DNA from: a virus
Length of the DNA: 64,000 nt
Reading direction: 5' to 3' (one strand)
IMG/VR virus record: IMGVR_UViG_3300027749_000039
Coordinates: 64,001 to 128,000 of that record
In this document: positions 2,241-61,318 of the stretch, piece by piece
How the letters are laid out: each line of letters opens with the position of its first letter
Numbering within the stretch: the stretch's first letter is position 1
Made by a program: the position numbers and the translations under genes
Notes under the pieces: generated by a model
Seen by the model: the letters and a program-made list of their open reading frames with translations, nothing else
What the model was told of the DNA's origin: nothing
Database searches by the model: none

Positions 2241-2516
2241 TTATTTAAATGTTATTTTTGTACTTCCAAATCCATATAATGGATTATATTCGTTAATGCA
2301 ACTGCCAACGTGTGGATGTTGTTTTGCTATTTTATGAATAGCAGCTTTTAATACACCCGAACCTATTCCGTGTATTACGGTTATTTCAATTTCTCCTAAT
2401 GCAAGCGCCTTATCTAGTTCATATTCAAACATATCTAATTGTATTTGAAGTGAAAAGCGTGGATCATATCCGGGAGAATTAGTAATCTCAGGAGATAAAT
2501 GCAAATCTACTACCAT
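2241..2516 (-). CDS. stand-alone Smr-domain endonuclease
   Basis: N-terminal VDLH and IHGIGSGVLK motifs typical of Smr/MutS2 C-terminal domains; 91 aa. Confidence 0.85.
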   Translation of the reverse strand: MVVDLHLSPEITNSPGYDPRFSLQIQLDMFEYELDKALALGEIEITVIHGIGSGVLKAAIHKIAKQHPHVGSCINEYNPLYGFGSTKITFK

Positions 2517-3196
2517 TTCTTTTTTACGCTGTAGCCAGCTTTATTAAGCTTAGTTCGCATTTCTTCTTTTTCTTCTGGTGTAAAATTAACTTTTACCGGA
2601 AATTCCTTACTATTAGAATCAAAGAAAGTTATTTCATAATCTTCAAATGAACACTCTATACCATAGTCATCTGGTTGATATGGATGCTCCGCACCAATAC
2701 CTTTGCCTTTTTGTACATAAAAATTGGCATCTTCATCGTCTTCTTTTGAATCGTCGGTATTCATAACTTCGTATTCATCTTCGTCCTCATCCTCATCTTC
2801 TTCGTAATCTTCGTTGTCCTCATCGTCTTTTGAATCATCGTCCTCATCTTCTTCGTCATAGTTATCATCGTCCTCATCTTCTTCGTCATAGTTATCATCG
2901 TCCTCATCTTCTTCGTCCTCATCTTCTTCGTCATCGTCCCAACTATCTCCGAAAAAATCTTTATAACCGGGAACATTTTTAAATGTATCCATACCACCCA
3001 TTCCACCAACATCAAATGCTCTACAACACATCTCTAAACATTTAATGAAGTCCTCAAATGACTCATTATTTTTATCAATATATACGATATCTTCGTCATC
3101 ACCGTCAGCATCACCAATCATATAGTTTATATGAACTTTATAGCAGTTCTTATATACTGGTTGTTCTATTTCTTTTTTACCAATTTTTATTTCCAT
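2510..3196 (-). CDS. hypothetical protein with long Asp/Glu low-complexity insert
   Basis: About 70 aa of almost pure D/E between apparently globular N- and C-terminal parts. Confidence 0.7.
   Translation of the reverse strand: MEIKIGKKEIEQPVYKNCYKVHINYMIGDADGDDEDIVYIDKNNESFEDFIKCLEMCCRAFDVGGMGGMDTFKNVPGYKDFFGDSWDDDEEDEDEEDEDDDNYDEEDEDDDNYDEEDEDDDSKDDEDNEDYEEDEDEDEDEYEVMNTDDSKEDDEDANFYVQKGKGIGAEHPYQPDDYGIECSFEDYEITFFDSNSKEFPVKVNFTPEEKEEMRTKLNKAGYSVKKKW
2835..2917. repeat. 30-bp coding tandem repeat (about 2.8 copies)
   Basis: Unit tcatcgtcctcatcttcttcgtcatagtta at 2835 and 2865, partial at 2895; encodes NYDEEDEDDD on the minus strand. Confidence 0.9.
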
Positions 3197-3200
3197 AATT

Positions 3201-4754
3201 TTAGTTATTTACTTCTTCGTTATTTACTTTATATTGTTTAATTAAATCGCTATACGTTTTTACAATACCATCATTTGTTCTTACACAAATCATAGAAGCA
3301 CCTATTTTCTTTACATCATCTACACCCATAGCACCCATTAATTCTCTTACCTCATGAACTATGTTTTCATGGAAATTAAATACTCTTACACGTTTTTCTT
3401 CTGGGTCAAGTCCTCTTACTAACTTTTTATCTTGTGTAGCTATACCTACTGGGCAAGTATTGTTATTACATTCTCTCGCTTGAATACAACCAAGTGACAT
3501 CATAAATGCTCTTGCGGCATTTACGCCATCTGCACCAAGTGCTAATAGCTTTATTATATCAAAGGAAGTTGTTGCTTTACCAGAAGCGATTACTCTTATA
3601 TCCTTTCTTAGGTTGTATTTAATTAAAACCCGATTAACTTGAATAAGTGCGTCTATAAGTGGAGTTCCAACATAGTTGGTAAATACTAACGGTGCAGCAC
3701 CAGTTCCACCTTCACCACCATCTAATGTTATAAAATCAGGGTAGCAGTCTATCTCTTTCATTTTAGAAACTAATTCATCAAATTGTTCTATATCACCCAA
3801 GCATAATTTTATACCAATAGGTTTACCGCCTGACATGCATCTTAATTTATAGATGAATTGTATCATTTCAACATTATTGCTAAAAGCTGTATGATAAGGT
3901 GGACTCATTACATCGGTTCCAGGAGTTGTATTTCTTATTTTAGATATTTCAGCCGTATTTTTAGCTGCTGGTAATATACCACCGTGTCCAGGTTTGGCAC
4001 CTTGTGATAGCTTTATTTCTATCATCTTAACTTGTGGACGAATAGCATTCTTTTCAAAAATAGCATCATTAAAATAACGCTTACCGTCTTTATCAATTCC
4101 AGAGCCAAAGTATCCTGTTCCTATTTGGAAGCATATATCACCACCATATTCTAAATGGTAGGGAGATAAGCCACCTTCACCGGTATTATGATAGAAATTA
4201 CCCAATTTAGCACCACCATTTAGAGCTTTTACAGCAGCTTCGGATAGTGCACCAAATGACATTGCTGATATATTGTATATTGAGGCGCAATAAGGTTTAG
4301 AGCAGAATTTTGAACCAATTAGAAATCTTGGTTCTTTAATTGAATTGTAATCAATTGGATAGAGATTATGTTTGAGAAACTCATAACCTTTTTCATAGAC
4401 GTTTAATTGTGTACCAAATGGTACGGTGTTTGGATCTTTTTTAGATTTTTGATAAATATCGGAACGTCTTTCCCTATTAATTGGTGTTCCATTTATATTA
4501 TCTTCAATAGCGTATTGTTGTATTTTTGACCTTTCATTTTCAAAAACCCATCTGAGCCTACCAATAATTGGATAATTTCTTAAAATAGAGTGATGAGTTT
4601 GAAATACATCATGTATATAAACTATTAATCCTATACTTAGTATAGCAGTTGTTATATAAGACAGCTCTGTATGTTTAAAATAAAGGTATGTAATTGAAGA
4701 AGCTAATAATACTAATAAATAGATGAGTATTCTTTGTCTCGTTAAGTGGCTCAT
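3201..4754 (-). CDS. FMN-binding glutamate synthase family protein (YerD/GltB2-like)
   Basis: AMSFGALS, NTGEGG, EIKLSQGAKPGHGG, DGGEGGTGAAP and the Fe-S Cys cluster CIQARECNNNTCPVG; hydrophobic N-terminal segments. Confidence 0.92.
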   Translation of the reverse strand: MSHLTRQRILIYLLVLLASSITYLYFKHTELSYITTAILSIGLIVYIHDVFQTHHSILRNYPIIGRLRWVFENERSKIQQYAIEDNINGTPINRERRSDIYQKSKKDPNTVPFGTQLNVYEKGYEFLKHNLYPIDYNSIKEPRFLIGSKFCSKPYCASIYNISAMSFGALSEAAVKALNGGAKLGNFYHNTGEGGLSPYHLEYGGDICFQIGTGYFGSGIDKDGKRYFNDAIFEKNAIRPQVKMIEIKLSQGAKPGHGGILPAAKNTAEISKIRNTTPGTDVMSPPYHTAFSNNVEMIQFIYKLRCMSGGKPIGIKLCLGDIEQFDELVSKMKEIDCYPDFITLDGGEGGTGAAPLVFTNYVGTPLIDALIQVNRVLIKYNLRKDIRVIASGKATTSFDIIKLLALGADGVNAARAFMMSLGCIQARECNNNTCPVGIATQDKKLVRGLDPEEKRVRVFNFHENIVHEVRELMGAMGVDDVKKIGASMICVRTNDGIVKTYSDLIKQYKVNNEEVNN

Positions 4755-4957
4755 GATTTTCTTTTTAAAAGGTAAAAAAGATGAATTGTAATAATAGCAA
4801 CATTTGTAAATACAATAGGCATGTCATTTTTTAATGCAGCGTATGTAATCCATAATGCACATGCTATACAACTTGTTATCCTTAACTTAAAGATACTCTT
4901 AAAAGTAAAGGATAACAAGGTTATTATAGTGGCGACATATCCTAATATATCAATCAT
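4751..4957 (-). CDS. small inner-membrane protein (YgjV-like)
   Basis: 68 aa, three hydrophobic segments, GY.A...L.SF....KLRI pattern. Confidence 0.6.
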   Translation of the reverse strand: MIDILGYVATIITLLSFTFKSIFKLRITSCIACALWITYAALKNDMPIVFTNVAIITIHLFYLLKRKS

Positions 4958-5283
4958 TTAAATAATTTCATTTTGTAAAAACTATCAATATAGGCTTCTT
5001 CGGTTTCTATATTTAGAAGATTTGGATTTATGACTGAGTCACGTTTGTTATAAAAATCATAATAACCAGATTTTGTTCTTTTAGTCATTTTATTAACAGT
5101 ATTTTCATCCACTTCTTCATCTAAGATAGATAAGTAGTTGTCATAATCCAAAAGTTCATAAAACTTAGTTATTCCCAACTTTAACTTTTCGATGAACTTT
5201 TCATTTCCTTCCTTTACAAGGAAAGTTGTCCAAGTTTCACCTTCATTACCGCAGTATTCTTCTATCTCGATATATGTTTTCAT
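4954..5283 (-). CDS. hypothetical protein
   Basis: ORF overlapping neighbours by 1-4 nt in an operon-like run. Confidence 0.6.
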   Translation of the reverse strand: MKTYIEIEEYCGNEGETWTTFLVKEGNEKFIEKLKLGITKFYELLDYDNYLSILDEEVDENTVNKMTKRTKSGYYDFYNKRDSVINPNLLNIETEEAYIDSFYKMKLFK

Positions 5284-5744
5284 TATGCCAACATTTTTTT
5301 AGCGATATCTGAAATTGTTTTACCATCTGCTTTACCGATAAGCTTCTTTGAAACTAAGCCTATTACTTTACCCATTTCACGGATAGAAGTTGCACCAGTT
5401 TCGTTAATAGCTGATTTAACTTCAGCTTCGATTTCGGCTTCAGACATTTGTTTAGGTAAAAACTTTTCGATAACAGAAATCTCGAATATTTCTTTATCAG
5501 CCAATTCTTTTCTATTATTTTCATTAAAGATAGTTGCAGATTCTTGACGTTGTTTAACCATCCTCTGCAATTCTTTCATTCTAACATCTTCGGTAATTTC
5601 TTTACCAGAAGTATTTAATGTTAAAAATGCTGCTTTAATACCTCTTAAAGCACCTAATGTTTCTGCGTCTTTTGACTTCATGGCTTCCTTCATGGATTCC
5701 ATTACTTGTGTTTCTAAACTCATATAATTTGTTTTATTTACCAA
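5283..5744 (-). CDS. yqeY: GatB/YqeY domain protein
   Basis: MKEAMKSKD..LGALRGIKAA, VKQRQESATIF, FLPKQMS..E, MGKVIG, GKADGK motifs. Confidence 0.92.
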   Translation of the reverse strand: MVNKTNYMSLETQVMESMKEAMKSKDAETLGALRGIKAAFLTLNTSGKEITEDVRMKELQRMVKQRQESATIFNENNRKELADKEIFEISVIEKFLPKQMSEAEIEAEVKSAINETGATSIREMGKVIGLVSKKLIGKADGKTISDIAKKMLA

Positions 5745-6289
5745 TTAATAATTGCTACTCTAGTAGAGGTGCCAGTTCTTGAACCTTCACGAAGTTCAGT
5801 TTTAACTGATAATCCTTTGTTTTTTAACTCTTGAACTAATTCTTTACTTACATTATGTTCCGACCGAGAAGTAAATCCATCTTCTTTATCAATTTCAATT
5901 ACTTCTAATATCCTTTCTACTTCAGAATCAATTCTAGCTTTTTCTTTTACAAGACCCTCTTCCGATAGAGAAAGTGTTATATATTCATCCATTCTTATTC
6001 TACCTAGTCTATCACCTTTTTCTCCGTCATTAATTACTTCTTGACGACCTTTTACTTCTAAAATGTTTTCATCATCATTTACATGAAGCTTGTAGGTAAT
6101 TACATACTCTGGATGCCAACCATCACTTAAGTTCCTAGTAGCGCCGCCATTTGCAGCAATAGCCGCTATAATAGATTCGAATGGAACTTCGGCTCCTCTT
6201 GTGCAGCCTTCATACCAACCAACATACTCTTCTTTAAATAAATCGAATAAACCAGCTTTTTTAAGCTCTGTTATATTTTGAATTTTCAT
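5738..6289 (-). CDS. hypothetical protein
   Basis: ORF directly downstream of the promoter at 6304-6334. Confidence 0.6.
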   Translation of the reverse strand: MKIQNITELKKAGLFDLFKEEYVGWYEGCTRGAEVPFESIIAAIAANGGATRNLSDGWHPEYVITYKLHVNDDENILEVKGRQEVINDGEKGDRLGRIRMDEYITLSLSEEGLVKEKARIDSEVERILEVIEIDKEDGFTSRSEHNVSKELVQELKNKGLSVKTELREGSRTGTSTRVAIINW

Positions 6290-6303
6290 TGATTTAATTT
6301 TAG

Positions 6304-6334
6304 TAAAGATACAAAATTATTTTTAGATAGCAAA
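6304..6334 (-). promoter_or_regulatory. Bacteroidota-type sigma promoter (TTTG-N19-TATCTTTA)
   Basis: caaa 6331-6334 and taaagata 6304-6311 on the + strand, 19-nt spacer. Confidence 0.7.
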
Positions 6335-6766: not shown

Positions 6767-6787
6767 TTTCTTTTTCTTTTTATATGA

Positions 6788-6818: not shown

Positions 6819-6841
6819 ATAAATAATTATTTTTAATTTTA

Positions 6842-7744: not shown

Positions 7745-7766
7745 TAAAATTATATTAATGAATATA

Positions 7767-9103: not shown

Positions 9104-10600
9104 TTAATGTATAAACTTTTCTCTTGTTCTCGGTATTAAAGAAGCTTCATCAGCAACCTGTAAGTTAAGCATTTGTTTTAAAAGTCTTTCGACTCCTAAT
9201 CCCATACCACCATGAGGTGGCATACCAAACTTAAATGGCATCAAATAACTTTCAAAGCTTTCTGGATTTAAACCTTTGCTTTTAATACTTTCGACTAATT
9301 GTTCGTAATTGTGAATACGTTGTCCACCTGAGGTTATTTCCATACCTTTATAAAGTAATTCAAATGTTTCTGAGTCAACACCATTTTCAGATGGCATAGC
9401 GTAAAAAGGTCTTTCGGATAATGGATATTTAGTTATAAATACAAAATCTGATTCATGTTTTGCTTTAACATATTCACAAATTAACTTTTCAGCTTCGGTA
9501 TTTAACCCGATACCTGGTAATTCGTACCCAAATTCAGTTTTAATTATTTCAACTGCTTCATTATAGGTAATTCTTGGAAAAGGTTTAAAGAATTTTAAAT
9601 TTAACCAAGGTTTAAAGTCTATGTTTAAGTATGTTAATTCTTTAGCACATGTTTCATGCACTTTTCTAAAGATGAAGTTTAAAACTCCTTCTTCTATATC
9701 CATAACTTCTTCAACTGAATTAATAAATCCCATTTCAAAGTCAACCCCAATAAATTCGGTAAGATGTTTATTAGTATTTGAACCTTCCGCACGATAAACT
9801 TTACCTACTTCAAAAACTCGTTCAAATACACCAACCATCATTTGTTTATAAAACTGAGGACTCTGTGTTAAAAACATTGGTTGTCCAAAGTAATCAATTT
9901 CAAACATATCAGAGCCACCTTCTAATCCGGCTGCTGAAAGTTTTGTAGAATTAATTTCAGTGAACCCATTTCCTTTTAAATACATTCTATAAGCATTAAT
10001 AACTTCAGATTGTATTTTAAATATACACCTTTCTTTTTCTTTACGCAAAGTTAAAGGTCTAAAAATATTTAGAGTATTAAAAGGTGGTAAACCTTCTTCC
10101 CTAGATATAGGGAAAGGCAAAACTTCGGCATTTGAAATTACATTAAGCGATTCCGCCATAATTTCTACTGTAAAGTCTTTAGATTGATTCGCTTCTTTAA
10201 CTATACCAACAAGTTCAACAACAGATTCTGATAACAAAGACCCAGAAACTTCTTTTGGAACAACAACTTGGCAATATCCAGTTCTATCTCTTAGTATAAG
10301 AAATGACATCTTCTTTAATTCTCTCCAATTAGAGACCCATCCTTTAATAAGGACTTTTTTGCCTATTTTATTAGGTAATTCGCTAACTAAAGTTCTTTCT
10401 AAGATTGGTTCTTCCCAAGCTTTGATTTCAACATGATCAGGCATAATATTATCTGAGCCATCAATAGCCCAAATCAAAGTAATTTTCTCATTATTTACTT
10501 TATATACTTCTCCTGTTATATGTAGTGTATCGAATAATTCGATAGGTTTTAAGTTTCTTGTTAGTTCATACCAATAATGTATGTCAATTACCATGCTCAT
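9104..10600 (-). CDS. aspS: aspartyl-tRNA synthetase, archaeal/non-discriminating type, with N-terminal extension
   Basis: OB-fold LILRDRTGYCQVV, QSPQFYKQ, motif 2 YRAEGSNTNKHLTEF, EITSGGQRIH, motif 3 PPHGGMGLGVERL; no bacterial GAD insertion. Confidence 0.88.
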   Translation of the reverse strand: MSMVIDIHYWYELTRNLKPIELFDTLHITGEVYKVNNEKITLIWAIDGSDNIMPDHVEIKAWEEPILERTLVSELPNKIGKKVLIKGWVSNWRELKKMSFLILRDRTGYCQVVVPKEVSGSLLSESVVELVGIVKEANQSKDFTVEIMAESLNVISNAEVLPFPISREEGLPPFNTLNIFRPLTLRKEKERCIFKIQSEVINAYRMYLKGNGFTEINSTKLSAAGLEGGSDMFEIDYFGQPMFLTQSPQFYKQMMVGVFERVFEVGKVYRAEGSNTNKHLTEFIGVDFEMGFINSVEEVMDIEEGVLNFIFRKVHETCAKELTYLNIDFKPWLNLKFFKPFPRITYNEAVEIIKTEFGYELPGIGLNTEAEKLICEYVKAKHESDFVFITKYPLSERPFYAMPSENGVDSETFELLYKGMEITSGGQRIHNYEQLVESIKSKGLNPESFESYLMPFKFGMPPHGGMGLGVERLLKQMLNLQVADEASLIPRTREKFIH

Positions 10601-17991: not shown

Positions 17992-18399
17992 TTATAGTAA
18001 TTTTAGATTAGCTGTAATAGCATCAATTTTTTCAGAATAATGTGGTCCAATAGCAAGACAAGTTTTAGTTGGCACATTATTAAATTCAGTTCTGCCTGAA
18101 TCAACTATCATATGAACGGTCAAATCCGCTTCTTTTGCTTTATTATAGATTTCGTCTAATTCTTCTTCTGAATTGACACCAACACAGATTTTGGTAAAAG
18201 AATTTTGCATCCATTCTTTTGCTTCTTTAAGATTGCTCATACTTGTGTTAATAAATGCTTCGTTATATAGGCAATCTAACGAATCAAAAGTTCCCTTTTT
18301 TGTTAAGAATGCCATAGATGCGTGACTCGCCTGAGCCATTTCTTTTCCCCGCCTCATTTTGAGGTCTTTCCTCATTACTATTACTTGTTTAGTTGCCAT
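17992..18399 (-). CDS. pth2: peptidyl-tRNA hydrolase, Pth2 type
   Basis: KQVIVMRKDLKMRRGKEMAQASHA, FTKICV, VDSGRTEF, TCLAIGP. Confidence 0.95.
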   Translation of the reverse strand: MATKQVIVMRKDLKMRRGKEMAQASHASMAFLTKKGTFDSLDCLYNEAFINTSMSNLKEAKEWMQNSFTKICVGVNSEEELDEIYNKAKEADLTVHMIVDSGRTEFNNVPTKTCLAIGPHYSEKIDAITANLKLL

Positions 18400-22015: not shown

Positions 22016-24190
22016 ATGGAATTAAACTCAAAAATATATGTAGCTGGACATAATGGGCTTGTAGGCTCAGCAATTGTTAGAAAGCTTAAACAGTTAGGTT
22101 ATACTAATTTGATTTTTAAATCTTCAAAAGAATGTGATTTGAGAAATCAAAATGATGTATTGGAATTGTTTGAATTTGAAAAACCTGAATATATCTTTTT
22201 AGCAGCCGCTAAAGTTGGTGGTATTAAATCAAACTCTTTATATAAAGCTGATTTTATTTATGATAATTTGTTAATACAGACTAATATAATTTCAGCTTCT
22301 AATGGTGTTGGTGTTAAAAAACTTTTATTTTTGGGTAGTAGCTGTTTCCCATCTGGGAATATAGTAGCGATGAATAATTGTGAATTTAAGGATATATCAG
22401 ATGTAAATATAAATGATATTGTAATTGATAGTAGCGGTAATAAACAGTTAGTATCAGCAGTAAATAAGAAAAACATAGAAGAGGATATTCTTCTAATAAA
22501 ACCATTAGGAATGACAGTAATATCTGTTACAAAAGAACATCCATTTTTATTAAAAAATGGTGAATTTATTAATGCTGAAAAACTTATTATAGGTAATAAG
22601 TTAGTTATACCTATTTCTAAATATAAAATAGAAAATTATGTTTCAATAATAAATGATGAATTAGAGATATCAAAAAGAGAAGCATTTAATTACATAAAAA
22701 ATGGTGGAAAATTAACAGAAACTGTAAAAAAATTTAATTTATCCTATTCCACAATAAGTGGATACATTTATAATGATACAAAGCCTAAATCTATGCAAAT
22801 ACCAATTGGTTGTAATATACATGATGTAGCATGGCTTACAGGTGTGTTTTTAGCCGAGGGGTGGCTATCTGGTGTTAAAACAAATAAAAGGGGTGGGAAA
22901 CACATTGTTGCCTTCTCACCTGGGTGTAGTGAAAATTTCAAAAATAAAATAGTTCATAAAATAATTAGTGTTTTCAATATCAAACCTATCGTAACAAAAG
23001 AGAGAACTTCTTATAAAATTACTATAAATAATAAATTTATTTATTCATTTTTCGAAAAATGTTATATTAATTCTGTACACATGTCCTATACAAAGAAAAT
23101 ACCAGATTTTATTTTTAATTCAAATAAAGATTCTGTTATAGAAGTTATAAAGGGGTATTTTGAAGGTGATGGATGTAAACATATCAGAAAAAATAGAAAC
23201 AATCAATATACATGTGTTTCATCCAGTACCTCATATAATTTGACATATGGATTATTTCAGTTAATATCAAGATTAGGTATTTTTGCCAGTATTAACTTTG
23301 TGAAAAAGAAAAATGTAACAATTATTGAAGATAGAAAAGTAAATCAGAGAAATCAATATAGTTTAAGAATAAATGGTAATTGGGCTATAAAATTTTTAAA
23401 TATTGTTTTTGGTGAAAATTTATCCTTAAATAAGGAGATAAATAATGGTGTAGAGTTTGTAGAAGATTGTTTTTATGTTCCCATTACTAAAATAAGCACT
23501 ATAAATTATTCTGGTTATGTATATAATTTTACTGTCGAAGAAACAAATACATATTGTGTAAATAATATTGCAGTGCATAATTGTATTTACCCAAAAATGT
23601 GCCCTCAACCTATTAAAGAAGAATATTTACTTTCGGGATATTTAGAGGAGTCAAATGATGCCTACGCTATTGCAAAAATAGCTGGTATTAAAATGTGTCA
23701 AGCATTTAATCAACAATATAACACTAATTTTATTTCAGTTATGCCTACAAATATGTTTGGTATTGGTGACAATTACCATCCAGAGAATAGCCACGTAATT
23801 CCAGGTCTTATTAGAAGATTTCATGATGCAAAAGTTGCTAATCAAAAAGATGTTATTTGTTGGGGAGACGGAACACCAATGCGAGAGTTTTTATTTAATG
23901 AGGATTTAGCGGATGCATGTATATTTTTAATGAATAATTATAAATCATCTGATATAATAAATATAGGAACAGGTAAAGATATGACTATAAAAGAATTAAC
24001 TGAAATAATAAAGTCAGTAGTTTATCCAGGAGCTAATATAGTATTTAATAATGATGTTAATTTAAATGGAACTCCTAGAAAAGTATTAGATACTACAAAA
24101 ATAAACACCCTCGGATGGAGTCCGAAGGTGTCGTTTGAAGAAGGTGTGAAAATCGCTTATGAAGATTTTTTAAAATCCTTTATTTCTTAA
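22016..24190 (+). CDS. fcl: GDP-L-fucose synthase (GMER) interrupted by an intein
   Basis: IYVAGHNGLVGSA, AAAKVGGI, LLFLGSS|CIYPK, YAIAKIAG, MPTNMFG, WGDGTPMREFL. Exteins total 311 aa. Confidence 0.95.
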   Translation: MELNSKIYVAGHNGLVGSAIVRKLKQLGYTNLIFKSSKECDLRNQNDVLELFEFEKPEYIFLAAAKVGGIKSNSLYKADFIYDNLLIQTNIISASNGVGVKKLLFLGSSCFPSGNIVAMNNCEFKDISDVNINDIVIDSSGNKQLVSAVNKKNIEEDILLIKPLGMTVISVTKEHPFLLKNGEFINAEKLIIGNKLVIPISKYKIENYVSIINDELEISKREAFNYIKNGGKLTETVKKFNLSYSTISGYIYNDTKPKSMQIPIGCNIHDVAWLTGVFLAEGWLSGVKTNKRGGKHIVAFSPGCSENFKNKIVHKIISVFNIKPIVTKERTSYKITINNKFIYSFFEKCYINSVHMSYTKKIPDFIFNSNKDSVIEVIKGYFEGDGCKHIRKNRNNQYTCVSSSTSYNLTYGLFQLISRLGIFASINFVKKKNVTIIEDRKVNQRNQYSLRINGNWAIKFLNIVFGENLSLNKEINNGVEFVEDCFYVPITKISTINYSGYVYNFTVEETNTYCVNNIAVHNCIYPKMCPQPIKEEYLLSGYLEESNDAYAIAKIAGIKMCQAFNQQYNTNFISVMPTNMFGIGDNYHPENSHVIPGLIRRFHDAKVANQKDVICWGDGTPMREFLFNEDLADACIFLMNNYKSSDIINIGTGKDMTIKELTEIIKSVVYPGANIVFNNDVNLNGTPRKVLDTTKINTLGWSPKVSFEEGVKIAYEDFLKSFIS
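22343..23581 (+). mobile_element. 413-aa intein with LAGLIDADG homing endonuclease
   Basis: Begins CFPSG, block B VTKEHPF, LAGLIDADG-like WLTGVFLAEGW and IKGYFEGDG, ends VYNFTVEETNTYCVNNIAVHN before +1 Cys. Confidence 0.95.
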
Positions 24191-24394
24191 ATAAACTTGA
24201 TACATATAATAGGGCCATAATACGGTAAGTAATACTACTACTATATTTATCAATTCTTTATCAGTGAAATCATCTAATTCTTCACCACTTATTACTCGCA
24301 TTGAGTCTATCATCCGTGATATATCATTTGCCATTGATAAAGTGAACATAGAGCCTAATACCAGGTAGTAAAGTATAATTTGTATTAAAATCAT
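24170..24394 (-). CDS. small membrane protein
   Basis: Two hydrophobic segments, LWPYY. Confidence 0.55.
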   Translation of the reverse strand: MILIQIILYYLVLGSMFTLSMANDISRMIDSMRVISGEELDDFTDKELINIVVVLLTVLWPYYMYQVYLRNKGF

Positions 24395-25497
24395 ATTAAG
24401 CTTTTGTTAAAATGGTCTGTCCTTATTTTAGTTATGAAATCGGTAATCATTTCTTGATGTTCAAATTTATTTGGTAAATCTGAATTAATGAATATATCAT
24501 ACATTACTTTTAAATCATCTTCAGATTTATCCATTAAAGTTTGTAAGTCATATTTACCACGCCTGATATCTATCAGGTATTCTCTATTTGATCTAAATAT
24601 ATTGATAGTCTTGTCAGTAGGTATTTCCATAGCAGTTTCAATAATTCTTATATTATGAAGAATATTTTTACCATCTATTTGCTGACCATGTCCTTCTATA
24701 TCAACATATCTATCAGTATTTCTTTTTTCCAACCATTCCTGGTATTCTTTATAATACTTACAATGTTGAGAATAAGCATCTTTATGAAAGAATAATATGC
24801 CAATTGGTTTAGCATCTTTTTCTATTTCCGATAAACAAACATCATTAGCATCTTCACCAGAAGTTATACCACGATACATATAAGTAGTAGAATTAAACAA
24901 TAAATAACAATCTCTGAAATGATCTATTTTAGATAGACCACAATTCTCTAATACTAGATTATTTTGTATTAGAAATTGATTTAACTTGATTGCATTAGTT
25001 TCAAACATTTTTTCATCCTGTGAAGGAAAAGAATAAACAGAACACATATCTTCAACAGACTTTCTTTCTGTCCTATCTTTCTCCCAATTCATTTTCTTTT
25101 CTAAACCAGATGCCTTTCTTATTTGGTCTTTAGCATAATTCGCAAAACTATGACGTAGGTTTTTAGTTAAAAACAAATGTTTAAATTTTAGAATTTGCTT
25201 AAAAGTATCGGTTATGTGAACTATGCAATGTTCTGGTGCGTAAAGTAATTCTAATAAAGTTGGATTACCAGTAGAACAAGATAGTAAAAACTTTTCTAAT
25301 TCAAAGTATTTTTCATCTTTGTTTATTTCTAATTCATCTCTATAGCCATTCATATACTTATCATAAGGGTCTTGTATAAAGACACCTTTATAATCGACAT
25401 CCGAACCAGCCTGGGACTCTGTTTTTTCAATGTTAGTGCCATATGATTGGCTACCAACAATAGTTTTAAATAATATTGTATGTCCGTTAATTTTCAT
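24391..25497 (-). CDS. Pol-beta-like nucleotidyltransferase (RlaP/PF10127-like)
   Basis: IVGSQSYGT...SDVDYKGVF; FELEKFL...GNPTLLELL; REYLIDIRRGK. Confidence 0.8.
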   Translation of the reverse strand: MKINGHTILFKTIVGSQSYGTNIEKTESQAGSDVDYKGVFIQDPYDKYMNGYRDELEINKDEKYFELEKFLLSCSTGNPTLLELLYAPEHCIVHITDTFKQILKFKHLFLTKNLRHSFANYAKDQIRKASGLEKKMNWEKDRTERKSVEDMCSVYSFPSQDEKMFETNAIKLNQFLIQNNLVLENCGLSKIDHFRDCYLLFNSTTYMYRGITSGEDANDVCLSEIEKDAKPIGILFFHKDAYSQHCKYYKEYQEWLEKRNTDRYVDIEGHGQQIDGKNILHNIRIIETAMEIPTDKTINIFRSNREYLIDIRRGKYDLQTLMDKSEDDLKVMYDIFINSDLPNKFEHQEMITDFITKIRTDHFNKSLI

Positions 25498-39911: not shown

Positions 39912-39940
39912 AAAAAGCGGCTATATAGCCGCTTTTTTTA
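39909..39940. terminator. bidirectional terminator
   Basis: Palindrome taaaaaaagcggctatatagccgcttttttta. Confidence 0.85.
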
Positions 39941-40216
39941 TTCTGGTTGCTTAATTTTTATTATAAAATCTTCACCTTTCTTAACTTGTTCTTGAAAAGA
40001 ACCTAAAGCCTTTGAAATTAAAGCCCTATCTAAATCATTAAAAATATCAGCATTATCGTAGCATACTTGAACTGCATTGATTATAATATTCAATGCCATA
40101 GTAGTATTAATAGTTGGTGTATTGAGGATTTCTTTTATTTCTTCCATTTGTTGTTTCATTTCTGGTGAAACTTCCATTTCTGGTGCCAATTCGGCGTTTT
40201 GAATTTGTTCGTTCAT
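39938..40216 (-). CDS. hypothetical protein
   Basis: ORF. Confidence 0.55.
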   Translation of the reverse strand: MNEQIQNAELAPEMEVSPEMKQQMEEIKEILNTPTINTTMALNIIINAVQVCYDNADIFNDLDRALISKALGSFQEQVKKGEDFIIKIKQPE

Positions 40217-40234
40217 AAATGTTTATATTTTTAT

Positions 40235-41230
40235 TTATATATCAATTGTTATATTGTCTATATTGAGCCCTAATTTTTCAGCTTGTAGCCTCAGTGGTTT
40301 TCTAATAATCTCTAAGAAGGTTGATTTAATTTTACTCTTAAACTTATTTAGTCTAATTACTTCTCTCATATCATTATTCAAATCACCATTAGAGTTTGGT
40401 AAATAAGATGCCATTCTTAATTTATTATTAAAATAATTTATATCACCTATAAAATCATGTTCAATAGCATTTGGGTTAAGTGTCTCGTAAATAAATTCAC
40501 CACTATCACCCTGTGGTAGAAACACATTTTTATTAAACGGTATTTGTTCAGCTCCATCTATCGTGACTTTACCAGTGTAATTATCAATGTCCCAATTACT
40601 CAGATGTGTTTCTATGAAAGTTCCAATAGATTCTTCAGCTTTTTGTTTAGATAGACCTTTTATCGGAATTTCATATTTATTAGTTGTTGACGATATTTTA
40701 ATATTATACATAATCATACAATTTTCTATCATTGATAATTGATTGTATGGTTTCATTAACCTTTCAACATATGATGTTTCTGAGTCTGAATAGGAAATAA
40801 ATATAACTTGTGAATCATATAGAATTCTTTTTAATTGCTCATCTTCTGGATATTGAATCCAATAATTTCCATGTTCTTTAGCATACGCTGGTACTAACGT
40901 AGCAGGACTTAATCTACTGAATGATAATATGTTTTCTTTTTTATCATCCCATATAATTTCTAATGAAATATAACCATCTATCATTAAATCTCTAAATGTG
41001 TTAGACATATTAATTTCATTATCAAAACCTAATTTTTTAATTAGTTCCTTGAATATTGGACGAATGTTAGCTTCATCTTCGCTGCTAAATGTGCCTAATC
41101 TAATAGAAACATTTATACATTCATTACACATTATGTCTAGATAATATCTAATTTCATCTTTAATCGAATATTCCCTTAATATTCTTTTCTTATCCGCATA
41201 AGATTTGTCTTGGTATGGAATTTGTTTCAT
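40235..41230 (-). CDS. short T4 gp20-like portal homologue
   Basis: LDIMCNECI, DGYISLEI, RLSPATL, VERLMKPYNQLSMIENCMIMY, DINYFNNKLRMAS resemble gp20 motifs; only 331 aa. Confidence 0.6.
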   Translation of the reverse strand: MKQIPYQDKSYADKKRILREYSIKDEIRYYLDIMCNECINVSIRLGTFSSEDEANIRPIFKELIKKLGFDNEINMSNTFRDLMIDGYISLEIIWDDKKENILSFSRLSPATLVPAYAKEHGNYWIQYPEDEQLKRILYDSQVIFISYSDSETSYVERLMKPYNQLSMIENCMIMYNIKISSTTNKYEIPIKGLSKQKAEESIGTFIETHLSNWDIDNYTGKVTIDGAEQIPFNKNVFLPQGDSGEFIYETLNPNAIEHDFIGDINYFNNKLRMASYLPNSNGDLNNDMREVIRLNKFKSKIKSTFLEIIRKPLRLQAEKLGLNIDNITIDI

Positions 41231-42574: not shown

Positions 42575-43702
42575 TTATGCTACTGCTAAGTAAATCTTGC
42601 GATTCATTCTTTCGATAGCTATAACCTTTACTTTTACTGTTTGACCAGCATTGAAAGTTTTTTCAGCTTTTTCTAATTCAGAGTTATGAATCAATCCAAT
42701 TGTTTCATCGTCTAAGAAAATGAGTGTTCCAAATTGTTTGTTTTCTTTCACTTTGCCTGTTAAAGTTTGTCCAATCTTAATATTATCCCACAAAGTTTCT
42801 CTTAAAATTTGAGTTAAGATAATCTTAGAATCCTTTATTATTTCCTTTATGTAGAATTGTATTTCATATCCCGAAGGAATTTGCTTAATCTTTTCTTGCC
42901 ACTCTGGATCTATATTCGTTTTGTGAATCATACCTGTGAGACAAATATCACCATTTGAATTGGAAGCGAATTCAACGAATACGCCGAAATCAGTGGTTCC
43001 TGTTACGCTACCTGTGTAAACTGTATTTGTTTTTAATTCCTTTATTGCTTCTGGAATCAAAGATTGTAAATACTTTCTTCTTGAAACGATGTAAGTTCCT
43101 TCTTCTCTCGAAAAAGATTCTATCATTACCGCAAGTGTTTTACCAACAATTGTTTCTGGTTCAGAAAGTCTGTTAATACCTGCAAGTGTGTTCGGCATAA
43201 ACCCTGGTAAAATAATTGTGTCATATTGTAACTCAACATTGTAACCAGCCGGTGTCATTTCTTTAATGAAGGCGACAATACTATCTTCTTCTTTTAGAGC
43301 TTTAATTGTGTCGTGCGCTCTAGTCTCGTAGAGTTGTGCTACAGAACCTTCGATTAAGTAGTTTCTGTTGTTAACCTTTGAAACTAATAAATCAACTTCA
43401 TCTCCAATATTGAGTGATTTGAAATATTTAAGTTCATTTGGTTTGTTATCAACTCTGACATAATCTTTGAAACCTCCTTCGAACATAAGTGATTCTTTAT
43501 TCATACCAACATAAATTAAGGTATAAACCTCCCCTTCTTGGGGAACATTTACTACCATAGAATCGTAGAGTGAATTAAGTAAGGCTTTTTGTATTAAAAG
43601 CTCTTGATTTGATTTTACCTCGTTATCGAAGTCAAAATCAACGTCTGTGTTGTTGGAAAAATACTTTTTCCTTTTTTCGTTGTAAATAATGGTTTTGCCC
43701 AT
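42575..43702 (-). CDS. rpsA: ribosomal protein bS1 homologue (multiple S1 domains)
   Basis: Repeated S1 motifs: AGYNVEL..LPGFMP, TDFGVFVEF...GMIH.TNI, QFGTLIFL...GLIHNSEL...VKVKVI; IVSRRKYL. Confidence 0.8.
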   Translation of the reverse strand: MGKTIIYNEKRKKYFSNNTDVDFDFDNEVKSNQELLIQKALLNSLYDSMVVNVPQEGEVYTLIYVGMNKESLMFEGGFKDYVRVDNKPNELKYFKSLNIGDEVDLLVSKVNNRNYLIEGSVAQLYETRAHDTIKALKEEDSIVAFIKEMTPAGYNVELQYDTIILPGFMPNTLAGINRLSEPETIVGKTLAVMIESFSREEGTYIVSRRKYLQSLIPEAIKELKTNTVYTGSVTGTTDFGVFVEFASNSNGDICLTGMIHKTNIDPEWQEKIKQIPSGYEIQFYIKEIIKDSKIILTQILRETLWDNIKIGQTLTGKVKENKQFGTLIFLDDETIGLIHNSELEKAEKTFNAGQTVKVKVIAIERMNRKIYLAVA

Positions 43703-57049: not shown

Positions 57050-57134
57050 ATGGTATATATAAAAATGTGTATTTTATTTTAAGAAATATTAACCTTAGAT
57101 TTTATCTATTAAACAGAAAAAAATATGTTAATTA

Positions 57135-57166
57135 TTTGTTAAACACAAAAAATTGTCGTATCTTTA
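57135..57166 (+). promoter_or_regulatory. Bacteroidota-type promoter (TTTG-N20-TATCTTTA) upstream of the sigma gene
   Basis: tttg 57135-57138, tatcttta 57159-57166. Confidence 0.55.
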
Positions 57167-57300
57167 ATAGATAAAAATAAATATACAGAATTTTTATAAT
57201 TTGTTAAAAAAAAGTTAAAATTTTTACAACTTTTTTAAACTTTAATTATATAATATATAATTAAGCGATAAAAAGCAAATTATAAAAATTAACGGCAAAA

Positions 57301-57918
57301 ATGGCAATTAACACAACAACTTCACAACAGGAATCCCTCTTTAAAGAACGCACAGGCGAATCATTCGCATTTTTCTACGAAAAATTCTATCCAAGATTAG
57401 TTTACAACATTAACGGTATAACACAAGACGAAGTCCTAGCTGAGGACGTAGCTACCGAAGCGTTTATCAAAGCATTTGAAAAAATTGACCAGTATGAAAA
57501 AGGTAAAGCGCAGTTTTCAACATGGTTATTCACAATCGCAAGACACTTAGCATTACAAGAATTAAAACAAAGCAGGAAAGTATCTTCAATTGACTCCGAA
57601 GTAGATGAAGAAGGAACTACTATGAAAGACTTCTTACAAGAAGAAGACAATAATGATGAATTCTTATTTACATTAAATAACAAAAAGGCAGCACTAATCA
57701 AAAAATATATCGGTGAATTAAAACAACCATATAGAATGGTAATTGAAATGAGAGAAATAAAAAAGATGCAATATAAAGATATTGCGGATGAATTAGGTAG
57801 AAATCTTTCAACAGTAAAATCACAAATTAGACAAGGAAGAAATCTTCTAATTAAAGCATCTGAAAAGGAATTTAAATTATTAGATGAGCAAGGCTTAGAA
57901 GGTGAAATTTATTGCTAA
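57301..57918 (+). CDS. ECF-type RNA polymerase sigma factor
   Basis: Region 2 AEDVATEAFIKAF...FSTWLFTIAR; region 4 YKDIADELGRNLSTVKSQIRQGR. Confidence 0.92.
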   Translation: MAINTTTSQQESLFKERTGESFAFFYEKFYPRLVYNINGITQDEVLAEDVATEAFIKAFEKIDQYEKGKAQFSTWLFTIARHLALQELKQSRKVSSIDSEVDEEGTTMKDFLQEEDNNDEFLFTLNNKKAALIKKYIGELKQPYRMVIEMREIKKMQYKDIADELGRNLSTVKSQIRQGRNLLIKASEKEFKLLDEQGLEGEIYC

Positions 57919-57960
57919 TAAAAAATCGTTAATGTTAAAAAACATTAACGATTTTTTATT
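57917..57960. terminator. intrinsic terminator
   Basis: aataaaaaatcgttaatgtt-aaaa-aacattaacgattttttatt; TATCTTTG follows at 57976-57983. Confidence 0.8.
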
Positions 57961-57988
57961 TTAAGAATTATTTTGTATCTTTGAGCTT

Positions 57989-58732
57989 ATGAAAAAGCTT
58001 ATATTCTTATCATTATTGGCGAATAGCGTATTCGCACAAGACACGACCACATTTAAAGGTAATGTGACATTATTGGGTAATTATTCATCTGGTAATTATA
58101 ATGCAATTACAATAGGCGGTAAATTAAATTGTATTTATAATCGCAAGCATAATTTAGCAGAATTAACTTCCGCATATAGATATACTAAAATAGATGATAA
58201 ATGCTCACCAAAAGAAGATGAAAAATATGCGTTATTTTCATATTCACATCGTGTAAATAACATAAAAATAATTGGTGTAAGCGAAAATGAGATATCCTAT
58301 GTCAGGCAAATTGATTTAAGAGCTACAATAGGTTCTGGATTTGGCTATAAATTTATAAATACTAAAAAAACAGAACTTGAAATAAGTGAAGTTTTATTAT
58401 TTGAAGATATAAAATATTATAATAAAGAATATAACATATCAACATTAAGGTATTCTACAAGAATAAAATTTACTTATACAAATTATCCATTCAATTTTTC
58501 AACTATATGGTTAGTTCAGCCGCCAATATGGCAAACACAACCTATATCTCCTATTAATAATGGATATAAAGATAATTTTAATATGAGAAGTAATACAACA
58601 ATAGATATAAATCTATCTAAAAAGATAGTTATTGGCATATCAGATGAATTTATAATGCAAACTTATGTTAAACAATTTGGTAAAAAACCTGCCGATAATT
58701 CAGTTAACTTTTATATAAAATATTCATTTTAA
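57989..58732 (+). CDS. outer-membrane beta-barrel protein (DUF481-like)
   Basis: Signal peptide MKKLIFLSLLANSVFA|QD; alternating beta strands; LRATIGSGFGY; C-terminal YIKYSF beta-signal. Confidence 0.75.
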   Translation: MKKLIFLSLLANSVFAQDTTTFKGNVTLLGNYSSGNYNAITIGGKLNCIYNRKHNLAELTSAYRYTKIDDKCSPKEDEKYALFSYSHRVNNIKIIGVSENEISYVRQIDLRATIGSGFGYKFINTKKTELEISEVLLFEDIKYYNKEYNISTLRYSTRIKFTYTNYPFNFSTIWLVQPPIWQTQPISPINNGYKDNFNMRSNTTIDINLSKKIVIGISDEFIMQTYVKQFGKKPADNSVNFYIKYSF

Positions 58733-59386
58733 ATGTCAAAAATAATACCAGTAATCCATACTATTAATTTGGAACAAGTTCAATATAACGTCAATTTATG
58801 CCAGGCTAACGGTATAAATGACGTTTTCCTCATTTCACACAAAGTCCGTAATTGGAAAAAAGCAGTTTTTGATTTTCAACTATATTTAGATTGGATTAGA
58901 ACTACATATCCTACTATAAAAGTAGGAGTTAATTTCCTACAACTAGATACTTTACCTGCTGTTGCGGAATCTTCTATACTTGGTTTTGATTATTTGTGGG
59001 CGGATAAATCTTACTTACAAAATAAATCAACTTTATATATTGCTGAAGAGATTGCTGAAAATAAAATTACACCTTATTTTGGTTGTGTCGCTTTTAAATA
59101 TCAAAAGCCAGAAGAAGATTTAGAATGGAGTTGTCTTAAAGCAAAAGAATTAATAGATGTAGTTGTTACTTCTGGTGATGGCACTTCATATGCGCCAGAT
59201 ATTGAGAAAATTAAAACTATAAAAAGATTTATTGGTGATAAACCATTAGCAATAGCAAGTGGTATATCACCGGAAAATAAATCTATGTATAAAGAGTGGG
59301 TAGATTACTTTATGGTAGCATCTAGTATAACAGATAACTATGAAAACATAATAGAATCAAGATTGAAAGATTTAATCAACTTTTAA
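58733..59386 (+). CDS. BtpA/SgcQ-family TIM-barrel protein
   Basis: IIPVIH, VGVNFL, YFGCVAFKYQ, VVVTSGDGT, LAIASGISPEN, FMVASSI. Confidence 0.75.
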   Translation: MSKIIPVIHTINLEQVQYNVNLCQANGINDVFLISHKVRNWKKAVFDFQLYLDWIRTTYPTIKVGVNFLQLDTLPAVAESSILGFDYLWADKSYLQNKSTLYIAEEIAENKITPYFGCVAFKYQKPEEDLEWSCLKAKELIDVVVTSGDGTSYAPDIEKIKTIKRFIGDKPLAIASGISPENKSMYKEWVDYFMVASSITDNYENIIESRLKDLINF

Positions 59387-59423
59387 TACTTGCATTTGTA
59401 TAAAAATAAAAATAACAATAAAT

Positions 59424-59747
59424 ATGATTTTAGAAGTAAAAGACGGTAATTTAGAAGAAATTATTAAAGAAGGAGTCGCACTTGTTGATTTATGGGCACC
59501 ATGGTGTGGACCTTGTAGAGTATTAGGTCCAATTGTAGATGGTTTAGCTGTTGATTTAGAAATGGCTGGTTCCGCTATAAAAGTAGCTAAAATGAATGTA
59601 GACGAGAATAGAGATGTTGCAGTTGAATTAGGAGTCACAAGTATTCCAACTATTCTTATTTACAAAGACGGTGTAATTGTAGATAGAGCAATTGGTGTGA
59701 CTCAAAAGCCAAAATTGATGGAAATGTTAGAAAAATATACTAACTAA
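59424..59747 (+). CDS. trxA: thioredoxin
   Basis: LVDLWAPWCGPCR, KMNVDEN, SIPT. Confidence 0.96.
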   Translation: MILEVKDGNLEEIIKEGVALVDLWAPWCGPCRVLGPIVDGLAVDLEMAGSAIKVAKMNVDENRDVAVELGVTSIPTILIYKDGVIVDRAIGVTQKPKLMEMLEKYTN

Positions 59748-59755
59748 TAAAAAAT

Positions 59756-59786
59756 TTTGTTTTTCGATTTTTATTTCTTATCTTTG
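59756..59786 (+). promoter_or_regulatory. Bacteroidota-type promoter (TTTG-N19-TATCTTTG)
   Basis: tttg 59756-59759, tatctttg 59779-59786. Confidence 0.8.
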
Positions 59787-59801
59787 TAAAAAGAATAAAA
59801 A

Positions 59802-60878
59802 ATGAACTTTTTAGACGAATTTCTCAAATTAACTGCATATACTACGCCATTTAAGCAAGAATCTGATTTAGAAGACTATCTTAATAGCAAAATCCCTGGT
59901 CTTATGAAAGACGCAATCGGTAATTATCATAAAATTATTGGTGATAGTGAAACACTTTTTACTTGCCATCTAGATAATTATTGCCGAGATAAAAGAGCTG
60001 TCACGCATGTTATAGAAGATAATATAATTTGCACTGATGGACTAACTATACTAGGAGCTGATAATAAAGCAGGTGTATTAGTTCTTATATACCTTATAAG
60101 CAATAATGTCCCTGGGCATTATTGCTTCTTTATTGGTGAAGAACCAATTGAATCTGGTGGACTTTATGGTTCTACTTTATTTGCTAAATATTATAAAGAT
60201 ATTAAAAAATTTAAAAGAGCTATTGCTTTTGATAGAAAAGCTACTGGTTCAATTATTACTAGGCAAATGGCTCAAACATGTTGTTCTAATGATTTTGCCC
60301 TTGCTCTTTGTAAAGAATTTAATGATTATGGATTATGGATGGAACCAGACGAAACTGGGTATTATACAGATACAGCTGCATTTTTAGAGCTAATACCAGA
60401 ATGCACTAATATATCTGTTGGCGTATATGACGAACATTCTACAGAAGAATCCATAGATATAGAATATCTAGAAACAATAGCCAAGACAGCCGTCCTAATA
60501 GATTGGGAATATCTACCTACACATAGAACACCAAATTCTTGGATGCCCCTCGAAAATGAGGGTGATGCTATTGTTGCACCTCATATCGAAACGGTGAATC
60601 AAACTTTATATAAAGCAGTTAAATCTATTTTATCTAATTTTAATTTCCGGTGCATGAATAAACTAGACTTTAAAAGTGGTAAAACAATGATGTTTAATAA
60701 TTGGTTTTATGATCTACCATTAACCGTAATTATTAGAAATGCTATTATTACTATAAATGGTAATAGAATACCTATACATGTTGGGCGGAATCAGTTTATT
60801 GATCCACAAGATATACAACATATAATAGAAGGTACAGTAGAAGTAGAGAATATTAACAATTTTGATTGGGATTTTTAA
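59802..60878 (+). CDS. M20/M28-family zinc peptidase-like protein
   Basis: TCHLD, LGADNKAG, FIGEE, AIAFDR, YTDT, NISVG. Confidence 0.75.
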   Translation: MNFLDEFLKLTAYTTPFKQESDLEDYLNSKIPGLMKDAIGNYHKIIGDSETLFTCHLDNYCRDKRAVTHVIEDNIICTDGLTILGADNKAGVLVLIYLISNNVPGHYCFFIGEEPIESGGLYGSTLFAKYYKDIKKFKRAIAFDRKATGSIITRQMAQTCCSNDFALALCKEFNDYGLWMEPDETGYYTDTAAFLELIPECTNISVGVYDEHSTEESIDIEYLETIAKTAVLIDWEYLPTHRTPNSWMPLENEGDAIVAPHIETVNQTLYKAVKSILSNFNFRCMNKLDFKSGKTMMFNNWFYDLPLTVIIRNAIITINGNRIPIHVGRNQFIDPQDIQHIIEGTVEVENINNFDWDF

Positions 60879-60880
60879 AA

Positions 60881-61318
60881 ATGAGTATAAATAACAAAAA
60901 AGCATATTACGAGTATTCTATATTAGAAGAATATGTAGCTGGGCTTAAATTATTAGGTTCAGAAGTTAAAGCATTGCGTGAAGGTAATGGCAATATTAAC
61001 GATACATATGTTCTTATAATGGACGATGAAGTATATGTAAGAGGCATGTATATTGCTAAACATAAAGAGTCATCTTGGATGAATCATGAAGAAGTTCGTG
61101 ATAGGAAACTGCTTTTAACTAAAAAGCAAATCAACGATTTAAAAAAAGATTTGAAAGTTAATGGTATTACCATTGTTCCTATTAGCCTATTTACTATGGG
61201 TGGTAAGTTTAAACTTAAAATAGGTGTAGCAAAGGGCAAAAAGAATTATGATAAGAAACAATCTATCAAAGAAAAGGATATTAAACGTCAAACTGATAGA
61301 GATTTAAATAATTACTAA
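60881..61318 (+). CDS. smpB: SsrA-binding protein SmpB
   Basis: NKKAYYEY, AGLKLLGSEVKALR, RKLLL, IVP, GKKNYDKK..IK tail; start at MSINN. Confidence 0.96.
   Translation: MSINNKKAYYEYSILEEYVAGLKLLGSEVKALREGNGNINDTYVLIMDDEVYVRGMYIAKHKESSWMNHEEVRDRKLLLTKKQINDLKKDLKVNGITIVPISLFTMGGKFKLKIGVAKGKKNYDKKQSIKEKDIKRQTDRDLNNY

Follow-up and report, generated by a model that had tools for sequence, protein, structure and literature searches.

In a stretch of viral DNA covering bases 64001-128000 of a 190,602-bp IMG/VR virus record (IMGVR_UViG_3300027749_000039), four genes encode a stand-alone Smr domain nuclease, a peptidyl-tRNA hydrolase of the Pth2 type, a protein resembling ribosomal protein bS1, and SmpB, the partner of transfer-messenger RNA (tmRNA). 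We refer to this whole stretch of 64,000 nucleotides as the window; the completeness of the record was estimated by CheckV at 31%. The original prediction, made from the sequence, had combined the four genes into a single phage-encoded ribosome-rescue pathway. Our analysis upheld the genes, but not the pathway. We consider it likely that they are separate, independently acting members of a scattered set of translation-support genes, gained at different times. All four open reading frames (ORFs) were present where they had been placed, and their identities were confirmed with Pfam (lengths in amino acids, aa):

2241..2516, minus strand: stand-alone Smr (SMR) domain nuclease, 91 aa (Pfam Smr, PF01713, E 8.9e-10)
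17992..18399, minus strand: archaeal/eukaryotic-type peptidyl-tRNA hydrolase Pth2, 135 aa (Pfam PTH2, PF01981, E 8e-33)
42575..43702, minus strand: bS1-like protein, 375 aa, with four S1 (OB) domains (Pfam S1, E 4.5e-17)
60881..61318, plus strand: full-length SmpB, 145 aa (Pfam SmpB, E 1.4e-49)

We examined the co-occurrence of these genes by six-frame search in 19 near-complete, SmpB-positive huge phages, comprising seven GenBank genomes and twelve IMG/VR records of at least 91% completeness. A homolog of S1 was found in 15 of the 19 genomes and a tmRNA above the Rfam gathering score in 11. PTH2 exceeded its cut-off in seven genomes and Smr in two, with two further weak matches, and these Smr matches belong to a mini-Smr family different from that of the window. 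No pairwise association was detected in the 19 genomes (Fisher p 0.39-1.0), and the same was true after near-duplicate genomes had been collapsed. S1 was present in seven genomes without tmRNA and missing from three that have one. In one relative (G007), whose S1 is 60% identical and in which the syntenic region is covered, neither Smr nor PTH2 was present. In another, a relative of 726.6 kb (ENA scaffold), PTH2 lies in a different neighbourhood, together with IF3, GrpE and DnaJ, and no Smr-family member was found. The distribution of the four genes is thus patchy and independent, and the proposal that they act as one cycle was not supported by this comparison. Within the window, the four genes are separated by 15.5, 24.2 and 17.2 kb and lie in unrelated neighbourhoods, and we found no physical or operon link among the four loci.

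The source of the DNA was examined on the whole record, which has a guanine-plus-cytosine content of 27.9% and contains 46 tRNA genes, among which one has a CUA anticodon; no tRNA, tmRNA or other Rfam family was found within the window itself. For both SmpB and S1, the closest matches are in LR745206, LR756502, LR756501, LR756504 and the Lak Prevotella phages. These LR-series relatives (634-735 kb) and the Lak genomes belong to the clade named Mahaphage, for which Bacteroidetes are predicted as hosts. Judged by these protein similarities, the window is part of a Mahaphage/Lak-type megaphage, and the host is probably a member of the Bacteroidota. Start regions were also informative. In the whole contig (186 ORF starts), 4-mers resembling Shine-Dalgarno (SD) sequences occurred at 1% of start regions as against 7% of random positions, and A was enriched at positions -12, -11, -9, -7, -5 and -3. 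SD sequences are ignored by the ribosomes of Bacteroidia, and A-rich, SD-less start regions are the Bacteroidia-type initiation signal.

Concerning SmpB, the claim that the gene is intact was borne out. The protein scored above both equivalog cut-offs (TIGR00086 / NF003843; 173.6 against 130 bits, and 161.7 against 119.1 bits), and its alignment to solved SmpB structures extended through the C-terminal tail, reaching residue 154 of 161 in 5zey_C and residue 150 of 156 in 1p6v_A. In this basic tail, which comes after the OB-like core (the GKK...DKR/K...IK region), residues G119, K120, K121, K125, I129, K130, D133 and R136 are invariant in seven phage sequences (the present one and six relatives). 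If the alternative TTG at 60866 is taken as the start, SmpB overlaps the gene upstream of it. That upstream gene encodes a 358-aa protein of unknown family, and SmpB is followed by a gene related to class I aminoacyl-tRNA synthetases:

61777..63045, plus strand: class I aminoacyl-tRNA synthetase-like protein (Pfam tRNA-synt_1g and tRNA-synt_1)

The order DUF481, BtpA, 358-aa protein, SmpB and class I aminoacyl-tRNA synthetase is also found in the 726.6-kb relative, the SmpB of which is 69% identical. None of the relatives examined lacked SmpB, which belongs to the core genes of the clade and has conserved neighbours in a conserved order.

We could not identify a tmRNA gene (ssrA) in the 190.6-kb fragment, which represents about 31% of the genome. 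Searches with Rfam RF00023, with ARAGORN, with nhmmer, for which six phage tmRNAs supplied the profile, and with a pattern of the 5'/3' acceptor stem gave only tRNA-sized matches. These negatives are weak, because ARAGORN recovered only one of four Rfam-supported phage tmRNAs. Eight of the 19 genomes (LR745206, LR756502, LR756501, G011-G014 and G016) carry a full SmpB without a tmRNA above the Rfam gathering score. Either these phages use the tmRNA of the host or their own tmRNAs are too divergent for detection. Among the closest complete relatives, LR745206, LR756502, G013 and G014 had either no match of tmRNA length or a partial match that stayed under the cut-off, and a smaller repeat search of LR745206 and LR756502 for tmRNA added nothing. 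A 344-nucleotide Rfam tmRNA match in LR756501 (21 bits) was set aside as weak and unconfirmed by ARAGORN.

The Smr protein is stand-alone, as had been claimed, and contains both of the motifs named in the original prediction. The DLH motif corresponds to D4-L5-H6 (DxH) and the HGxG motif to H49-G50-I51-G52, and both are invariant in 13 homologs, which display 63-77% identity and a mean column identity of 84%. They represent the catalytic motif and the GxG loop of SMR domains, whose roles were described by Saito et al. (bioRxiv 10.1101/2021.08.16.456513). The Pfam score was 39 bits against a cut-off of 25.7. When NCBIfam models were examined, the MutS2 C-terminus was the best match (35 bits), and the SmrB model NF003432 gave 16.3 bits against a cut-off of 128. 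An AlphaFold model of the protein (predicted local distance difference test score, pLDDT, 91) led to the same family. The top PDB matches were Smr domains of MutS2, with a template modelling (TM) score of 0.70 to 2zqe, and the matches included the Smr domain of the Bacillus subtilis MutS2-collided-disome complex; SmrB ranked only 16th in the structure search. The phage protein begins three residues ahead of DLH and has no N-terminal extension. The extension found in SmrB, with its acidic-aromatic helix that hooks onto uS2, is therefore absent. Conservation of the DxH motif argues for an active nuclease, and RNA cleavage through this motif is probably still retained.

In order to trace the origin of this protein, we queried 1.84 billion representative proteins with a profile made from the 13 family members. 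Matches outside the Smr cluster itself were mainly the C-terminal Smr domains of proteins of 250-390 aa. The cellular relatives of the KOW-SMR type were almost all from Bacteroidota (Chitinophagaceae, Taibaiella, Flavobacterium, Segetibacter and others), and the phage Smr is 44% identical to the final 89 residues of these proteins of 330-360 aa (P0016 was used for the comparison). No further Pfam domain, KOW included, was called in the Smr-bearing cellular relatives. They open with a conserved MKFxxGDxV...PVF segment, and their N-terminal 45 residues are predicted to form a small beta-barrel, next to which lies a beta-rich middle domain. These features match the published third clade of SMR proteins, described as Bacteroidetes proteins with KOW and SMR domains. 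Because the phage protein matches the Bacteroidota KOW-SMR proteins only at their C-terminus, it is the captured catalytic domain of a host-lineage KOW-SMR protein that has lost the N-terminal domains.

The 91-aa Smr was acquired recently by one narrow subclade. A single-sequence search of IMG/VR gave no relative, and the profile search of the same database gave one phage fragment (G003) as the sole match. Among GenBank phages we found no clear relative, with one marginal match at E 0.01, and none of the seven Mahaphage and Lak genomes searched in GenBank has the 91-aa Smr. No family member was found on any contig larger than 363.7 kb. A literature search yielded no description of a phage-encoded Smr, and the stand-alone Smr appears to be the sole element of the four that had not been previously reported.

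The designation of the third protein as a bS1 homolog held in part. E. coli bS1 consists of six S1 domains. Residues 55-373 of the phage protein are collinear with residues 19-345 of E. coli bS1, which correspond to domains 1-4 in solved bS1 chains, and domains 5-6 are absent. The first 54 residues form an N-terminal extension without alignment to bS1, domain 1 aligning from residue 55. In bS1, docking on uS2 of the 30S subunit involves an N-terminal helix together with domain 1. With the NCBIfam bS1 models (TIGR00717 and the NF models), the best score was 104 bits against a cut-off of 524, the cut-offs of all models being at least 368. From these scores we would designate the protein as bS1-like and not as an equivalog. 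The gene is situated between those for thymidylate synthase and a UVR-motif protein, and belongs to the core genes of the megaphage clade.

The identification of Pth2 was supported. The protein scored 113.5 bits against a Pfam cut-off of 23 and 100.2 bits against the TIGR00283 cut-off of 82; with NF003314, it reached 104.3 bits, below the cut-off of 126. K19, D100 and T104 of the phage protein align to K18, D86 and T90 of the Sulfolobus Pth2 (1xty), which we take to be the catalytic residues. The gene is flanked by two genes for proteins of unknown family, and a RecA-like gene is nearby. The nearest Pth2 proteins in GenBank phages belong to LR756511, LR745208 and Xanthomonas phage XacN1, and not to the relatives that share the genome backbone. 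Homologs with 40-55% identity are found in XacN1, Myrna, Atu_ph07 and the phiM12 group, and canonical PTH2 is also present in mycobacteriophages with genomes down to 59.5 kb. PTH2 thus travels between phages without being tied to the backbone.

A second, divergent PTH2-like gene was observed before the start of the window (G000:C1:55307-55672; L218:1308-1673), with a Pfam score of 36 bits. Its frame opens with ATG-TTG-TAG, the TAG being codon 3. The encoded protein has GY in place of GK, and the Lys that aligns with the catalytic Lys of Pth2 is apparently replaced. A tRNA with the CUA anticodon, which reads amber codons, is located at G000:C1:54412-54485, about 0.8 kb from this gene, and both are approximately 8.5-9.6 kb ahead of the window.

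The genes surrounding Smr were then compared among the members of the subclade. Smr lies in a run of genes on a single strand, in the order methylase, NUDIX protein, YqeY, 68-aa membrane protein, Glu-synthase-like protein, acidic protein, Smr and AAA ATPase. Four of the neighbours are as follows:

5283..5744, minus strand: YqeY (GatB/YqeY-domain) protein (Pfam YqeY, E 1.7e-41)
4751..4957, minus strand: hydrophobic 68-aa protein matching MtN3/SemiSWEET
2510..3196, minus strand: acidic protein of 228 aa with long Asp/Glu-rich repeats, its stop overlapping the start of Smr
1147..2235, minus strand: AAA+ ATPase directly downstream of Smr (Pfam AAA, E 1.5e-10)

In each of the four members of the subclade, YqeY shares the strand of Smr and lies upstream of it (an order common to L050, L022 and L024), and the 68-aa protein between YqeY and the Smr island is also kept in all four. 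The backbone from YqeY to Smr is thus preserved, and the genes for the Glu-synthase-like protein (FMN), the acidic protein and the AAA ATPase are variable. The AAA+ ATPase was found in two relatives and was missing from the third; of the relatives, one has the acidic protein (195 aa) and two lack it. We had considered the 228-aa acidic protein and the AAA ATPase as obligate partners of Smr, and rejected this as each is absent in some subclade members. In some bacteria, SMR genes show linkage to rpsU (bioRxiv 10.1101/2021.08.16.456513). The possibility that the 68-aa ORF encodes bS21 was ruled out, the product being a small membrane protein that matches MtN3/SemiSWEET.

From the families to which the proteins belong, we infer the following activities for the four members of the scattered set. 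SmpB would deliver tmRNA to ribosomes stalled on broken mRNAs (non-stop complexes), the tmRNA being encoded by the phage in about half of the relatives and otherwise supplied by the host. The S1-like protein most likely docks on the 30S subunit and would recruit the A-rich, SD-less phage mRNAs, as is normal in Bacteroidia initiation. Pth2 would be an accessory gene, swapped horizontally among large phages, whose product hydrolyses peptidyl-tRNA from stalled or damaged complexes. Smr is probably a recently gained RNA nuclease, corresponding to the catalytic domain of the host-lineage KOW-SMR protein without its N-terminal domains. Each of the four would act by itself on the ribosome pool of the host.

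In the cycle that had been proposed instead, Smr cuts mRNA at ribosome collisions, SmpB and tmRNA rescue the upstream ribosomes, Pth2 recycles peptidyl-tRNA and S1 aids the binding of tmRNA, the whole being run by the phage, perhaps so that ribosomes stay active while host defences cleave tRNA or mRNA. Part of this interpretation stands, in that SmpB and Pth2 are real rescue and recycling factors, and for every one of the domains a role of its family in rescue is documented or has been proposed. The strong constraint on Smr (invariant DLH and HGIG motifs and a mean column identity of 84%) and the resemblance of its model to the Smr domain in the MutS2-collided-disome structure would also be in accord with such a cycle, as would the collinearity of the four genes in the nearest relative and the recurrence of stand-alone Smr genes in megaphages with SmpB. 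Nevertheless, a single coordinated pathway is unsupported, because the components assort independently and the 91-aa Smr is limited to a narrow subclade, because no ssrA was found in the fragment nor, above the Rfam cut-off, in several of the closest complete relatives, and because the four genes sit in four unrelated neighbourhoods without an operon link. The S1-like protein has a simpler role in SD-less initiation, and its presence is unrelated to that of tmRNA. Moreover, Smr is a bare SMR domain without a recruitment domain, and SmrB reduced to its SMR domain fails to bind ribosomes (Saito et al., bioRxiv 10.1101/2021.08.16.456513; Nature 2022). According to a report on B. subtilis MutS2 (PMC10897456), that protein is recruited via both the SMR domain and the KOW domain, and it splits ribosomes without cleavage of mRNA, so that the cutting of mRNA at collisions is not a general property of Smr proteins. 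These published findings on SmrB and MutS2 weaken a direct transfer of the function of SmrB to the phage protein. We judge the single cycle to be quite improbable. Two other alternatives each concern one gene. Smr may not be a rescue factor at all, acting as a free nuclease in the degradation of host mRNA or DNA or in recombination, or as a KOW-less competitor that takes up the SMR site of collided host ribosomes and thereby blunts the host KOW-SMR response. This would account for Smr alone and overlaps with the reading of separate members. It agrees with the retention of only the catalytic domain of a host-type protein, with the variable island in which Smr is found, whose Glu-synthase-like, acidic and AAA ATPase genes are inconstant among relatives, and with the fact that SMR domains were first described as DNA-nicking nucleases, in the MutS2 of T. 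thermophilus (PMC1807967). However, the kept DxH motif speaks against a purely passive decoy, no conserved DNA-metabolism partner adjoins the gene, and RNA is favoured as the main substrate of SMR domains by Saito et al. (bioRxiv 10.1101/2021.08.16.456513), so that we regard a role outside rescue as unlikely. As for SmpB, it is conceivable that without a phage tmRNA the protein is directed against the host, redirecting or sequestering the host tmRNA and, for example, preventing the tagging and degradation of phage proteins or blunting a host stress signal. The eight of 19 SmpB-bearing relatives without a tmRNA above the Rfam cut-off, and the failure to find one in the fragment, would be explained in this way. 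The protein, however, is complete and keeps the conserved C-terminal tail on which function depends, as expected of an active factor; phage tmRNAs may escape detection, as seen with ARAGORN (one of four); and 69% of the genome is missing. We find a function of SmpB against the host very improbable.

Several observations weigh against our preferred reading of separate, independently acting genes. In the nearest fragment (G003; 90 kb, with an S1 80% identical), all four genes are collinear and equally spaced, and the four are found together only there and in the present genome. Contigs of 243.8, 232.8 and 53.8 kb are indicated to hold both Smr and PTH2, as inferred from equal sizes. The four-gene set is therefore stable inside the subclade, and the genes may cooperate there. 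In addition, a second family of mini-Smr proteins of 73-78 aa was found in LR745206 (L021), G011 (L133), G014 (L131) and G015 (L132). The motifs of this family are DLHG/DLHD and TG[IL/N]S in place of HGxG; it has no BLAST relation to the 91-aa family and is absent from the present contig. The presence of two unrelated Smr families in SmpB-bearing megaphages indicates that stand-alone Smr genes were captured at least twice, which hints at selection linked to translation. All 19 compared genomes are SmpB-positive, and only 31% of the present genome is at hand. The repeated capture keeps a weaker form of the rescue-pathway idea alive, namely that megaphages with SmpB repeatedly capture SMR nucleases, from two families, to cut mRNA at collisions and so feed the SmpB and Pth2 steps of the phage. 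We consider this form unlikely. If true, it would represent a phage-controlled addition to ribosome quality control, and would imply that a bare SMR domain needs neither a KOW nor a hook domain to work on Bacteroidia ribosomes.

Other genes related to translation or RNA repair were also observed in the window. The first is a further member of the dispersed translation set, and the second belongs to a family tied to RNA-repair pathways:

9104..10600, minus strand: class II aminoacyl-tRNA synthetase of the Asp/Asn/Lys type (Pfam tRNA-synt_2, E 3.9e-77)
24391..25497, minus strand: RlaP-family nucleotidyltransferase of the DNA polymerase beta type (Pfam RlaP, E 9.3e-13)

No RF-1/ArfB-type domain and no RtcB ligase were found in the 190.6-kb contig. 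An NAD-dependent epimerase/dehydratase gene (22016-24190, plus strand) is split by an intein with a LAGLIDADG homing-endonuclease domain. An ORF of 331 aa at 39938-41230 (minus strand) resembles the T4 gp20 portal protein and covers positions 8-351 of the 433-position profile. A 92-aa ORF follows in the same frame after two closely spaced stop codons, and the portal gene may be truncated, split or C-terminally divergent. When we examined whether this arrangement could be a split caused by TAG recoding, the ORF was seen to end at an ordinary stop with a second stop behind it; recoding at this position is not established. Elsewhere in the contig, past the end of the window, reading TAG as a sense codon fuses two long ORFs into a frame of 1736 aa with one in-frame TAG (G000:C1:185257-190467, minus strand), and about 30 other ORFs are lengthened under the same assumption; recoding, read-through or chance may be the cause. 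TAG is rare as a stop codon in the contig, terminating 10 of 214 ORFs.

Had the four genes formed one pathway, the virus would be in charge of a ribosome quality-control cycle of its own. What the evidence favours is the known pattern of huge phages gathering translation-support genes piecemeal. In the Mahaphage clade, SmpB and the four-domain S1-like protein are core components, and only about half of the genomes have a detectable tmRNA. Tests of co-occurrence like the one applied here provide a quick means to deflate readings of huge-phage gene lists as dispersed pathways. The 91-aa Smr could in itself be a natural minimal construct for the study of how SMR domains act on Bacteroidia ribosomes.

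The four proteins were also compared with known systems. The bacterial bS1 (rpsA) shares with the phage protein four S1/OB domains, collinear with its domains 1-4; it is 557 aa in E. coli, whereas the phage protein is 375 aa, lacks domains 5-6 and falls far under the equivalog cut-offs. With E. coli SmrB, an mRNA endonuclease triggered by collisions, the phage Smr shares the SMR fold and the DxH catalytic motif, but sequence similarity is weak and the N-terminal uS2-binding hook, which SmrB needs for ribosome binding, is absent. The Bacteroidetes KOW-SMR proteins of Saito et al. are closer, with 44% identity over 89 residues and the signatures DLH, VIHGxGxGxLK and NEYxPxYGFGxT, and the difference is that the phage Smr lacks about 260 N-terminal residues (KOW-like barrel, middle beta domain and linker). 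In agreement with the original prediction, which had stated that single members of the set are known from huge phages, tmRNA, SmpB and S1 (PMC7162821) as well as PTH2 (PMC7824862) have been published. Iyer et al. 2021 (Viruses 13:63, PMC7824862) described PTH2 across jumbo phages and proposed that it frees ribosomes jammed by tRNAs cut by defence nucleases. The Pth2 of the window is likewise an archaeo-eukaryotic-type enzyme in a large phage and does not differ in anything essential, although the present genome has the additional divergent PTH2-like gene in which codon 3 is TAG. Al-Shayeb et al. 2020 (Nature 578:425, PMC7162821) reported tmRNA, SmpB, release factors, RRF, multi-domain S1, many tRNAs and aminoacyl-tRNA synthetases in huge phages and put forward a model in which the phage redirects host translation. 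By the similarity of its SmpB and S1, the present phage falls in the same clade as phages of that study, the main text of which contains neither Smr nor peptidyl-tRNA hydrolase; to this repertoire the present subclade adds the 91-aa Smr.

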